Below, one piece after another: positions 58,840 through 62,361 of a stretch of DNA of 64,000 nt (the first letter of the stretch is position 1; the number at the start of each line of letters is the position of its first letter). Below the pieces are notes generated by a model. That model saw only the letters and a list, made by a program, of their open reading frames with translations. It was not told the DNA's origin and ran no database searches. This stretch comes from Escherichia phage vB_EcoM_G2133: sequence record MK327928.1; one strand, given 5' to 3'. The translations under genes were made by a program, and so were the position numbers.

Positions 58840-59042
58840 TATTCTTCTACGTGCTGTTTACGACCTTTCTTATCAATAAAGGTATATTCAACGAATGTTC
58901 CAATGTAGTCTTTATCTACATCATGTGGACTATTAATTGGACATTTAGTACGGCAAATGCGTTCCCATTGACGGATAATTACTGCCTTATTCTTTGGGTC
59001 ATACGGATGTGGATAATGTATATTCATAATAATGGTTCCCAA
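58815..59042 (-). CDS. hypothetical small protein
   Basis: 75-aa ORF. Confidence 0.4.
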   Translation of the reverse strand: MGTIIMNIHYPHPYDPKNKAVIIRQWERICRTKCPINSPHDVDKDYIGTFVEYTFIDKKGRKQHVEEYCLKVTWL

Positions 59043-59491
59043 TCAACAATCACAATTTCTAATTTAGAAGAATATGTATCTAAAATCCCCTCAATAATAT
59101 CCCAGTTCCCTTTACCTATGCCTGCACCAATCCTAGGCATATAGATTGTAGGTTTAATCAGTTTATTTTCACCAAACTCATTTAATTCTAACATACAATT
59201 CATTAAAGCGGAATACTCAAAATTTGGCCCTGGTTGAAATTGAGTATAAAGGTTGAAGCAATACGCTTTATGAGTCCTAAAGTATTTTTCATAGACTGAG
59301 TAAGAACCGAGTTTAGTTACATCACCCCATTCAGTCTGTAATTTATCAGCTTCCAAAATTTTAGGGAAAGCTTTGGTTAATTGACCTGCGACTCCAGCTT
59401 TCATCGTGTGAAAACAATTACATCCATGCGCAATATTTTTACCTTCAGCGAAAAGGGCGACAATATCGCCCTTAATATATTTTACAATCAT
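59024..59491 (-). CDS. macro-domain-like protein (tentative ADP-ribose binding or hydrolysis)
   Basis: 155 aa; IVALFAEGKNIAHGCNCFHTMKAGVAGQ resembles the macrodomain N-x-x-N / G-x-G core. Confidence 0.4.
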   Translation of the reverse strand: MIVKYIKGDIVALFAEGKNIAHGCNCFHTMKAGVAGQLTKAFPKILEADKLQTEWGDVTKLGSYSVYEKYFRTHKAYCFNLYTQFQPGPNFEYSALMNCMLELNEFGENKLIKPTIYMPRIGAGIGKGNWDIIEGILDTYSSKLEIVIVDWEPLL

Positions 59492-59835
59492 CTAGTACTC
59501 AATCCTCGATTATAAGAATCTACCAAACGGTCAACCATTGAATGACAAGCGGCTTTATCTTTCTCCTCCGCAACTGAGCATTCTAAGGTATTCCACTTTT
59601 TAGCATATCGTTTTAACAATGTATCGTTTTTGTATCTGCTTGATTTATCTCTTTCTCCGTCTTTATATGCATATATTAATTTCTGCGCAAATTCAGCTTG
59701 GCATGCTTTATTTTTCCCACAATAATCTGCCGCAGTGCGGTTTACATATTCTCTAATTTCAGTATATGATGTATCTGCTGACGCAGAAGCAGAAAATGAA
59801 ATTAATCCTATACATAAAACCAAAATTTTAGTCAT
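59488..59835 (-). CDS. secreted small protein (Vs-like by size and position)
   Basis: 115 aa with signal peptide MTKILVLCIGLISFSASASA. Confidence 0.4.
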   Translation of the reverse strand: MTKILVLCIGLISFSASASADTSYTEIREYVNRTAADYCGKNKACQAEFAQKLIYAYKDGERDKSSRYKNDTLLKRYAKKWNTLECSVAEEKDKAACHSMVDRLVDSYNRGLSTR

Positions 59836-60373
59836 TTACTATTTCCAAAAGTTTATTATTTTTAAGGTAGTTAGCCTTTTCTAGGACTTCAGAAGCATAT
59901 TTAGAACCTGCTTTAACATTCCATCCCGAATTATAAGAGGATATTGCTTTTCTTATATCACCCTTATGTATATTTAACCAATAAGAAAGTTCAATGTACG
60001 CCCAGGAAGCTGAATTGGATCGTTTATTCAACATTCTTTTTATTTCAGCATCGGTCATATTATAACCAAGTTCCTTAACTCTCGCTCGCATAGTAGGCAA
60101 ATAATTTTGGAACATTCCGTAGGCGTGATGCTTTGGTTTAGATTTTAAATTAACTCCGCCAGAGCTTTCTTGCCATAAAATAGCAGCCATTATATGACCT
60201 AATCCGCTCTTGTGGATATTTTTGTGTGTTTTATATTTTCCATCCTTAGAAAATTGTTCCCCGAATTGATACGCGTAACGCATGTTATCGAGTTGGACAT
60301 TACTGAAAGTATGCTCGGAGCTATGTGCCATCATTGAAATGGCCAATAGACCAGCGAGTAGTGCTTTTCTCAT
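59828..60373 (-). CDS. periplasmic lytic-transglycosylase-like protein
   Basis: 181 aa; signal peptide; LWQESSGG ... GMFQ ... SYNSGWN. Confidence 0.45.
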   Translation of the reverse strand: MRKALLAGLLAISMMAHSSEHTFSNVQLDNMRYAYQFGEQFSKDGKYKTHKNIHKSGLGHIMAAILWQESSGGVNLKSKPKHHAYGMFQNYLPTMRARVKELGYNMTDAEIKRMLNKRSNSASWAYIELSYWLNIHKGDIRKAISSYNSGWNVKAGSKYASEVLEKANYLKNNKLLEIVND

Positions 60374-60380
60374 GCTTACC

Positions 60381-60842
60381 TCATTGAGTTTTAATTACTG
60401 CTTTAGAAGCCTTTCCTGGTAAACGACGACTGTTGATAATTGCCATCCTACATTGAAGTGACGGGTCTTTGAACTTCGCGTTAGGTTTACAAACTGTAAA
60501 TCCAAGCCAAAGATTTCCATCTGTGATTTCTAAACGTCCAGGACGATATTCAACCCCATCAATAAAATCCTCGTCAATGTCAGGACGCGGAGGCATACTC
60601 AGGAATTCATTAACTTCTAAAACATGGTCTTTTATTTTATGGAATAATTCAAAAACGTATGTCTCATCAATCTCCCGTTGAATTGCGCGATCAAGAAGAT
60701 GCTGAGAATATTTTAGATGAAACGATGAGACTCCTGCTGCTTTTGATGCCTCACGAATCTCATTGTTAATTTGACGAAACTCCGACTCAAAGTGACGACG
60801 AAGCTTATTTCGACGGATAAAAACTTCTGTATTGATAGTCAT
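60381..60842 (-). CDS. regB: endoribonuclease RegB
   Basis: 153 aa; MTINTEVFIRRNKLRRHFESEF. Confidence 0.7.
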   Translation of the reverse strand: MTINTEVFIRRNKLRRHFESEFRQINNEIREASKAAGVSSFHLKYSQHLLDRAIQREIDETYVFELFHKIKDHVLEVNEFLSMPPRPDIDEDFIDGVEYRPGRLEITDGNLWLGFTVCKPNAKFKDPSLQCRMAIINSRRLPGKASKAVIKTQ

Positions 60843-61482: not shown

Positions 61483-61660
61483 CTAAACGAATAGGTTCAT
61501 GAATGCCATATCCTTGAACAGAAATTTCTGTCGTAGGATAAATTCCATCAATATCACCCATGGTCCACGCTTCATTAAATTGCTGTTCGCCTGAATTACT
61601 AAACCACTCGGCGAAAGCATTTAGCACATCTTTAGAACCTTCAATAATTATCTTTGCCAT
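61439..61660 (-). CDS. hypothetical small protein
   Basis: 73-aa ORF. Confidence 0.4.
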   Translation of the reverse strand: MAKIIIEGSKDVLNAFAEWFSNSGEQQFNEAWTMGDIDGIYPTTEISVQGYGIHEPIRLVEYDLCTGEEVKYD

Positions 61661-62022
61661 TACAAACTCTCAGTAAAGGTACGAGCGATAACGTCGCGCT
61701 GCTGTTCCGGAGTCAGAGAGTTAAAGCGAACTGCATAACCGGATACACGGATGGTCAGCTGCGGATATTTTTCCGGATGCTTAACTGCATCTTCCAGAGT
61801 TTCACGACGCAGAACGTTAACGTTCAGGTGTTGACCACCTTCAATTTTAACTGTAGGCTGTTGCTCAATTTCAATTTCACGGGCATGCAAACCGTAGAAA
61901 ATTTCTGGGTCTACAAAAGAGTCCTCTTTAAAGGTTTTAGAGACAATAATTCGTGCTTGAATACCATCTTCAAAATAAATAGTACCTTTATGTGTGCCTT
62001 CAAGAATTTGATATGCTTTCAT
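61660..62022 (-). CDS. autonomous glycyl-radical cofactor (GrcA/YfiD-like)
   Basis: 120 aa; C-terminal 60 aa [59 protein letters not shown] with RVSGY glycine-radical motif. Confidence 0.7.
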
Positions 62023-62029
62023 ATAAACC

Positions 62030-62361
62030 TCAATTAGAAAATAAATTTATCCAAGATTGTTCTTTAATTAAAAACGGCTCAGAATCATATGCCATTAAAC
62101 TCTGTGTGATTAGTCCTTTAAAAGGTCCATCAATAAATTCCATGGTAAAATATGGAATTTTATTCATTAGCCGTGCATTAGGAGCAGTACATAAAACTCT
62201 GCATCCTTTGAATACGCCTTTTTGTAATTTGTATTGCTTGGGATAAAATTCGCTCAAAATATTATTATTCGCTAAAATTTCAAAATGATTCACCAATTTA
62301 TTTTTAATAGTTTTTGGCGAAAAATAAAGATATTCGAAAAGCTGAGTGTCTGTCATCATTG
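62030..62361 (-). CDS. hypothetical protein (start ATG 62361, ATGA overlap)
   Basis: 110 aa from [10 protein letters not shown]. Confidence 0.4.

Follow-up and report, generated by a model that had tools for sequence, protein, structure and literature searches.

The T4 protein Y06I, product of the gene vs.6, is described as an autonomous glycyl radical cofactor that reconstitutes oxygen-cleaved pyruvate formate-lyase (PFL) (Wagner et al. 2001, as cited in PMC8683613). In particular, both YfiD, the GrcA protein of E. coli, and Y06I are activated by PFL activase and rebuild the catalytic centre of the oxygen-fragmented enzyme (PMC8683613). The first-pass annotation of the locus discussed here, made from the DNA letters, had pointed to a GrcA-like protein reported for T4, and Y06I is indeed that protein. 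Moreover, vs.6 was listed as one of the few open reading frames conserved across all T4-like genomes then known, in a survey that also notes its Gly_radical domain and guesses at a role in nucleotide metabolism (Nolan 2006, PMC1524935).

The E. coli GrcA protein (PDB 6OWR) has the same architecture as the vs.6 product, that is, its N-terminal region is flexible and precedes a glycyl-radical domain bearing the motif RVSGY. The C-terminal glycyl-radical domain of PflB is the piece which this spare part replaces, and the vs.6 protein is devoid of the catalytic barrel. A further term of comparison is provided by T4-like cyanophages, in whose photosynthesis genes psbA and hli intragenic recombination between host and phage was reportedly described by Zeidner in 2005 and Sullivan in 2006. 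There, as in vs.6, host-type patches are found inside a phage-type version of a host-derived metabolic gene. Unlike psbA and hli, however, vs.6 carries a single, sharply bounded patch of perfect identity, in a lytic coliphage otherwise without host homology, and the donors appear to be different enterobacterial hosts for different phage genera. To our knowledge, the usual view of T4-type coliphages is that they have essentially no DNA in common with their host.

The vs.6 Gene and Its Product

The window, that is, the whole 64-kb stretch of DNA that was analysed, is a segment of a Tequatrovirus (T4-like) genome. A 701-nt probe around vs.6 is 98.6–98.9% identical in nucleotides to phages AR1, RB14, T4_ev240 and others, and in the matching Tequatrovirus records the open reading frame is named vs.6 or "autonomous glycyl radical cofactor GrcA". 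The features of the gene as a whole are the following:

61660..62022, minus strand: vs.6 (T4 Y06I) coding sequence, 120 aa plus stop, from the list of open reading frames
62028..62031, minus strand: GAGG ribosome-binding site of vs.6, 5 nt before the ATG, read from the sequence
61738..61740, minus strand: GGT codon of Gly95 (RVSGY), the expected radical carrier, from the sequence and the 6owr and 1cm5 alignments

The gene lies in the order tk.4, vs, vs.1, regB, vs.3, vs.4, vs.5, vs.6, vs.7, vs.8, all on the minus strand, and is tightly packed between its neighbours: its TAA stop overlaps the ATG of vs.5 (TAATG), and its ribosome-binding site shares bases with the stop codon of vs.7. A promoter and terminator scan around vs.6 gave counts at the level of shuffled sequence, with no excess specific to the gene, which fits co-transcription of vs.6 in the vs.8–vs.3 cluster. 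Further along, tk.4, vs.1 and regB were placed through the RB14 annotation at 59024..59491, 59828..60373 and 60381..60842 (minus strand), and none of the three contains an E. coli DNA match. A macro/A1pp-type domain in tk.4 and an SLT lytic-transglycosylase-like domain in vs.1 are mentioned in the above survey (Nolan 2006, PMC1524935).

The vs.6 product is an autonomous glycyl radical cofactor of the GrcA/YfiD type. Specifically, it is a stand-alone protein with a PFL-type domain at its end; the Pfam family Gly_radical (PF01228) is recognized at residues 60–101 (E 2.5e-18, above the gathering score), and the RVSGY motif occupies residues 92–96. The structure of E. coli GrcA (PDB 6owr) matches the protein with an E-value of 9e-42, phmmer aligns residues 22–120 to GrcA 28–127, and PflB 697–759 (PDB 1CM5, 1H16) aligns to residues 58–120 (E 5e-26). 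Gly95 is presumably the counterpart of Gly102 of E. coli GrcA and of Gly734 of PflB. The NCBIfam model of GrcA, TIGR04365, gives the vs.6 protein 154.9 bits over profile positions 25–126 only, short of the equivalog cut-off of 170 bits, because the N-terminus has diverged; E. coli GrcA scores 233.9. This sub-cut-off score may account for the label "hypothetical protein" in many phage records.

The T4 protein Y06I is the orthologue, encoded at the same locus (vs.7–vs.6–vs.5, near regB). It has the same length of 120 aa and is identical at 119 of them (99.2%), the sole difference being residue 54, which is Gln in the window and Pro in T4 (Q54P); codon 118 differs synonymously, being GAG in the window and GAA in T4. 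Function is assigned to the vs.6 gene of the window because it is near-identical to Y06I. In other words, the gene and its biochemical role have been known since 2001, and no new system is described here.

A Host-Identical Tract in the Glycyl-Radical Half

Within vs.6, three segments with distinct relationships to the host gene can be told apart:

61845..62022, minus strand: AT-rich 5' half, residues 1–59 plus the first base of codon 60 (alignment, hhalign; G+C 0.343)
61670..61844, minus strand: host-derived tract of 175 nt, equal to nt 200–374 of the E. coli grcA coding sequence (exact run, pairwise alignment)
61660..61669, minus strand: 3' end of vs.6 past the exact run, comprising the last base of Glu118, Ser119, Leu120 and the stop

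The tract encodes I60–E118, namely the entire glycyl-radical domain. As the first-pass annotation had stated, the C-terminal 60 residues are those of E. coli GrcA (60/60, in agreement with the 6owr alignment), and its limits of 61660–61850 for the host-like part were right to within 10 nt at each end. Over the N-terminal 60 residues, by contrast with this identity of the C-terminal 60 aa and 175 nt, the two proteins are about 29% identical (hhalign), the phage protein being 7 residues shorter. BLAST stretches the E. coli match to 61656..61844 at 97.9%, and this match is present in 5,426 of 5,426 complete E. coli genomes. A 176-nt probe matches at 99% or more in 5,156 of these genomes and at 95–99% in the remainder, while megablast of the whole window against the same 5,426 genomes gave no match beyond this tract. 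Most E. coli genomes have two or three places that match the tract (grcA, pflB, tdcE), and at least one has 21–22, pointing to a glycyl-radical locus that was amplified or assembled more than once. With pflB the tract shares only about 80% DNA identity, so the donor is grcA rather than pflB or tdcE.

Also the composition of the tract sets it apart from the AT-rich early-gene cluster of a lytic phage in which vs.6, unlike E. coli GrcA, is encoded. The tract has a G+C content of 0.494, against 0.343 for the 5' half (GC3, 0.43 versus 0.22) and 0.343 for the window (sd 0.041, 174-nt windows), so that a windowed G+C profile bears out the host-like 3' part and AT-rich 5' part that the first-pass annotation had described. 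Only 0.01% of the 174-nt windows reach the level of the tract, all of them within 61663..61844; the tract is thus the most G+C-rich stretch of the 64 kb.

At the 3' end the limit of the tract is less clear-cut. The segment 61660..61669 has three synonymous differences, GAG AGT TTG in the phage and GAA AGC CTG in E. coli, and represents either the 3' edge of the tract or its early decay. Considering the window alone, a tract that originally reached the stop codon and then acquired three mutations may be compatible with the data. At the same three sites, T4 has GAA-AGT-TTG, two further phage copies have GAG-AGC-TTG (L100) and GAG-AGT-CTG (L098), and Mosigvirus has GAG-AGT-CTA. Such mixed host-type and phage-type states fit variable endpoints or patch repair, the numbers being small. 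Among the variants of the gene, Escherichia phage vB_VIPECOOM02 (L263) carries a Tequatrovirus vs.6 extended by two codons (369 nt with its stop, locus 401–769), with 174 of 175 tract positions and 59 of 60 tail residues identical.

Protein Constraint and Direction of Transfer

Conservation of the encoded protein does not explain the tract, because phage copies with the same protein are only 83.4% identical in DNA. Specifically, two Pseudotevenvirus-like copies (L108, L110) share all 60 C-terminal residues with the vs.6 protein of the window, yet their longest stretch of identical DNA measures just 17 nt. The nucleotide search against E. coli grcA that the first-pass annotation had suggested thus returned an exact run of 175 nt where such controls reach 83.4% and 17 nt, and, as judged from sequence comparison, the 175/175 identity is far above the protein-constraint level. 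Lower identities to the E. coli tract are found in the Krischvirus phage FL04 (68.6%), whose isolation host was E. coli K-12, and in T5-like phages (about 73%).

Among bacteria, the identity of grcA to the tract declines from 98.9% in Escherichia sp. MOD1-EC7003 to 92% in Citrobacter, 87% in K. pneumoniae and 83% in Salmonella. This fall with host phylogeny places the phage tract inside E. coli diversity. The direction of transfer is from host to phage, because the composition of the tract is of host type and the bacterial genes lie in a conserved ung-grcA context. Two peculiarities of the databases emerged from these searches. The enterobacterial grcA of a contig labelled 'Vagococcus sp. WN89Y' (NZ_JBQPOM010000029.1; L046) has 91% amino acid identity to E. 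coli, and the contig is probably mislabelled or contaminated. Moreover, PLSDB lists among its plasmids several complete chromosomes, from K. pneumoniae, E. coli and Proteus (for example CP125156.1, 5.37 Mb, and NZ_OL790696.1, 4.8 Mb).

The 5' Half and the Unconverted Relatives

Upstream of 61844 an alignment with grcA can still be made, although the DNA has diverged, and megablast stops there. A comparison of phage and bacterial GrcA N-terminal profiles by hhalign gave a probability of 98.2% and an E-value of 3.4e-14 over 59 columns, end to end. On this sequence evidence, the 5' half is homologous to the GrcA N-terminal region, from which it diverged long ago. The tract of the window is consequently flanked on its 5' side by a clearly diverged homologue and on its 3' side by the 10 nt with three synonymous differences.

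Full-length vs.6 genes without the host tract occur at the same locus in Matisse (Slopekvirus), CC31 (Karamvirus) and HK6 (Pseudotevenvirus), and in these three genera the 3' half is 81–83% identical to E. coli grcA. Unconverted full-length homologues are also found elsewhere than at the vs.6 locus, in Krischvirus (69%) and in T5-like phages (73%). Taken together, the N-terminal homology and the unconverted full-length genes of relatives imply that the gene pre-existed and that the host tract is a later replacement. The sharp 5' edge would be accounted for because the tract region alone is similar enough (about 80–83%) for phage and host DNA to pair.

GrcA-like genes are present in 1,588 phage records, well beyond the T4-like phages, and their carriers include T5-like Demerecviridae (H66–H82), the jumbo Yersinia phage fHe-Yen9-04, Aeromonas phage Ah1 and Vibrio phage QD01. 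In Ah1 the match adjoins nrdG; in some T5-like phages and in Aeromonas phage 31 it adjoins tRNA genes. The labels given to these genes vary, including pyruvate formate-lyase, 2-ketobutyrate formate-lyase, ribonucleotide reductase subunit and glycerol dehydratase radical.

Age and Spread of the Tract in Tequatrovirus and Mosigvirus

Comparison of eight Tequatrovirus with four Mosigvirus sequences gives the following between-genus identities:

vs.7 (upstream gene): 71.8%
vs.6, 5' half: 89.4%
tract: 98.4%
last 9 nt of vs.6: 77.8%
vs.5 (downstream gene): 71.1%

In other words, the two genera differ by about 29% in the flanking genes and by 1.6% in the tract. The between-genus identity of the tract equals the values seen within each genus, and the tract is therefore much younger than the genus split. 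Either it was gained separately in Tequatrovirus and Mosigvirus, or it moved laterally between them from one event. In the INPHARED collection, 642 phage records match the E. coli-type tract with at least 95% identity, 2 fall at 90–95% and 107 at 80–90%, so that the distribution is bimodal. T4 Y06I itself possesses the same 175-nt tract as the window.

Across 12 Tequatrovirus and Mosigvirus copies, all 14 changes inside the E. coli-type tract are synonymous. A common E. coli allele near the tract start, GTA for GTT, is carried by 8 of 14 E. coli-like loci and probably by about half of the complete E. coli genomes, and is absent from all 12 phage copies examined. Its absence from the phages seems to indicate few or rare events followed by spread from phage to phage, rather than continuous re-conversion. 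Four of the 14 phage variants coincide with variants among the 14 E. coli-like loci, which is too few to decide; these shared alleles were considered as a sign of several conversions and set aside, as they give no separation from recurrent mutation. Similarly, a decay of the tract towards phage composition, apparent in five sequences where all changes ran from G/C to A/T, was lost when 12 sequences were compared (8 GC-to-AT, 5 AT-to-GC and 1 T-to-A, not significant).

Host-Matched Tracts in Klebsiella and Other Phages

The 80–90% group of INPHARED consists of Klebsiella phages, in which the tail of the gene has a G+C content of 0.54–0.56, against 0.36 upstream. With a host set without K. pneumoniae, these phages passed for unconverted relatives (88%), an assignment that was dropped once a K. 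pneumoniae donor was found. In particular, the Jiaodavirus KPV15 (L122) is identical at 157 of 158 nt, with a run of 140, to the metagenome contigs L177–L179, and L177 is in turn 99.9% identical over 1,381 nt to K. pneumoniae ung-grcA-srmB in a PLSDB search. KPV15 clearly has its tract inside the gene, since the last 25 nt are of phage type and equal those of its sibling KP179, including a Ser-to-Ala change. In the KPV15 record (KY000080/NC_055715, locus 1501–1859) the vs.6 match counts 359 nt instead of 360; the frame is broken in the 5' half, and the domain-bearing open reading frame begins no earlier than ...NFYGYKAREV. An error of 1 nt in the sequencing would account for this, as would a genuine frameshift, and it concerns the very phage whose K. 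pneumoniae tract is the freshest.

Six sibling Jiaodavirus phages are identical to K. pneumoniae at 147–155 of 158 positions. In most pairs of these phages the tract (92–100% identical) is more varied than the 5' half (95–99%), and 13 of 19 synonymous tract variants match alleles of Klebsiella-group grcA (P about 0.005 against random synonymous changes, transition bias being uncorrected); two non-synonymous singletons are also present. The pattern of these sequences points to several conversions from different Klebsiella alleles. The Jiaodavirus conversion is independent of that in Tequatrovirus and Mosigvirus, with K. pneumoniae grcA as its donor, and vs.6 is therefore a target on which conversion from host to phage recurs.

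A third host-to-phage conversion may be represented by a metagenome phage contig of about 91 kb (L117), although this is a weaker case. It has a run of 53–56 nt identical to Haemophilus and 83–84% identity over the 180-nt tail, and its siblings in the group L115–L120 do not have the run. The run is of the Haemophilus parainfluenzae grcA type (loci L077, L218, L219). The members of this group are IMG/VR contigs, several of about 130–154 kb, and they have a more GrcA-like N-terminus (ARCLVAK..YEYREV).

Alternative Explanations and Proposed Mechanism

The vs.6/Y06I gene of Tequatrovirus is, in our judgement very probably, an old grcA homologue whose conserved half was overwritten by host grcA through homologous recombination. 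The first-pass annotation had instead read the gene as a chimera formed by capture of the 3' end of a host glycyl-radical gene; in the fuller form considered here, illegitimate recombination would have joined that end of grcA to a phage-specific 5' segment unrelated to it. Its host-derived 3' half stands (175/175 nt), and the sharp step in composition and identity at 61844/61845, together with host identity extending almost to the stop codon, is what such a capture would leave. The capture onto a phage-specific 5' part does not stand: the 5' half is homologous to the GrcA N-terminus (hhalign E 3.4e-14), unconverted relatives in sister genera have a full-length vs.6 with a diverged 3' half at the same locus, and the host tract of KPV15 is internal, with homologous sequence of phage type on both sides. 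A chimeric origin is accordingly held to be improbable. We consider still less probable a single ancient acquisition in the ancestor of the Tevenvirinae, followed by slow change of the tract through protein constraint. The exclusively synonymous changes (14/14 in the 12 copies) and a domain protein that is almost invariant across enterobacteria would agree with it; synonymous sites are nevertheless free to vary, as seen from phages with the identical protein at only 83% DNA identity, and neither the contrast between 29% flank and 1.6% tract divergence in Tequatrovirus and Mosigvirus nor a Jiaodavirus tract of K. pneumoniae type rather than E. coli type would be expected.

Transfer in the reverse direction, whereby E. 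coli and Klebsiella would have taken the 3' half of grcA from phages, has nothing in its favour other than the identity itself. The tract has host-type and not phage-type composition, the identity of bacterial grcA falls gradually with host phylogeny in a conserved ung-grcA context, and each phage group matches its own host species, all of which makes this direction extremely unlikely. Equally hard to credit is an artefact by which host reads contaminated or chimerised the phage assembly: host DNA does occur in phage lysates, but the tract is found with the same junctions in 642 independently sequenced phage records, T4 assemblies included, and lies in frame within a conserved gene.

Replacement of one half of a resident gene by homologous recombination is, then, the preferred reading, and it can be set out as follows. 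A full-length, AT-rich grcA homologue has been present for long in T4-like phages, and in Tequatrovirus and Mosigvirus its glycyl-radical half was replaced with E. coli grcA DNA by gene conversion. The upstream edge of the tract marks the point where phage and host DNA are too diverged to pair. T4-type phages degrade host DNA, and T4 attacks cytosine-containing host DNA, which speaks against such recombination. A likely route is the recombination-dependent replication of T4, which could copy host DNA fragments, for example by strand invasion and a subsequent template switch back.

As to function, the 14-kDa vs.6 protein would dock on host PFL cleaved by oxygen at Gly734 and take the place of the C-terminal glycyl-radical domain that the enzyme has lost, once PflA, the radical-SAM activase of the host, has installed the radical on Gly95. 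Conversion of pyruvate into acetyl-CoA and formate could thereby continue while the phage infects micro-aerobic cells. The class III ribonucleotide reductase (NrdD), which T4-type phages encode, uses formate as its reductant; a benefit for the phage might thus be that formate from PFL supplies this enzyme. The conversion may be adaptive, or it may be a neutral consequence of the homology that remains between the two genes. An adaptive role could consist in matching two host-specific residues (E/L and K/E, in the E. coli and Klebsiella types) or in host-optimal codons.

Concluding Remarks

In the searchable literature, outside of which some key older papers lie, neither the DNA-level identity to grcA nor a recurrent, host-species-matched conversion is described, and the novelty of the latter is uncertain. 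Within the 64 kb, host-identical DNA is confined to one perfectly bounded patch of 175 nt, located in the phage homologue of a host gene, and the genera differ in that each has a patch from its own host species. Read in this way, the sequences are direct evidence of natural recombination between strictly lytic phages and homologous genes of their hosts. Moreover, the vs.6 tract offers a natural, sequence-marked system for the experimental measurement of conversion. It also calls for caution in annotation and host prediction, as a short host-identical segment in a phage is not necessarily contamination.

A more speculative possibility, which we regard as somewhat unlikely, is that vs.6 is a standing hotspot of adaptive host-to-phage conversion that tracks the PflA activase and PflB of the current host. 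The grcA allele of that host would replace the glycyl-radical domain time and again, so that the spare part stays fitted to both enzymes in its residues as well as its codons. If true, the E. coli-type tract of Tequatrovirus and Mosigvirus, the K. pneumoniae-type tract of Jiaodavirus and the possible Haemophilus-type patch of oral metagenome phages would be instances of it, and host-tracking by conversion would represent a general form of upkeep of host-interacting metabolic genes in lytic phages.
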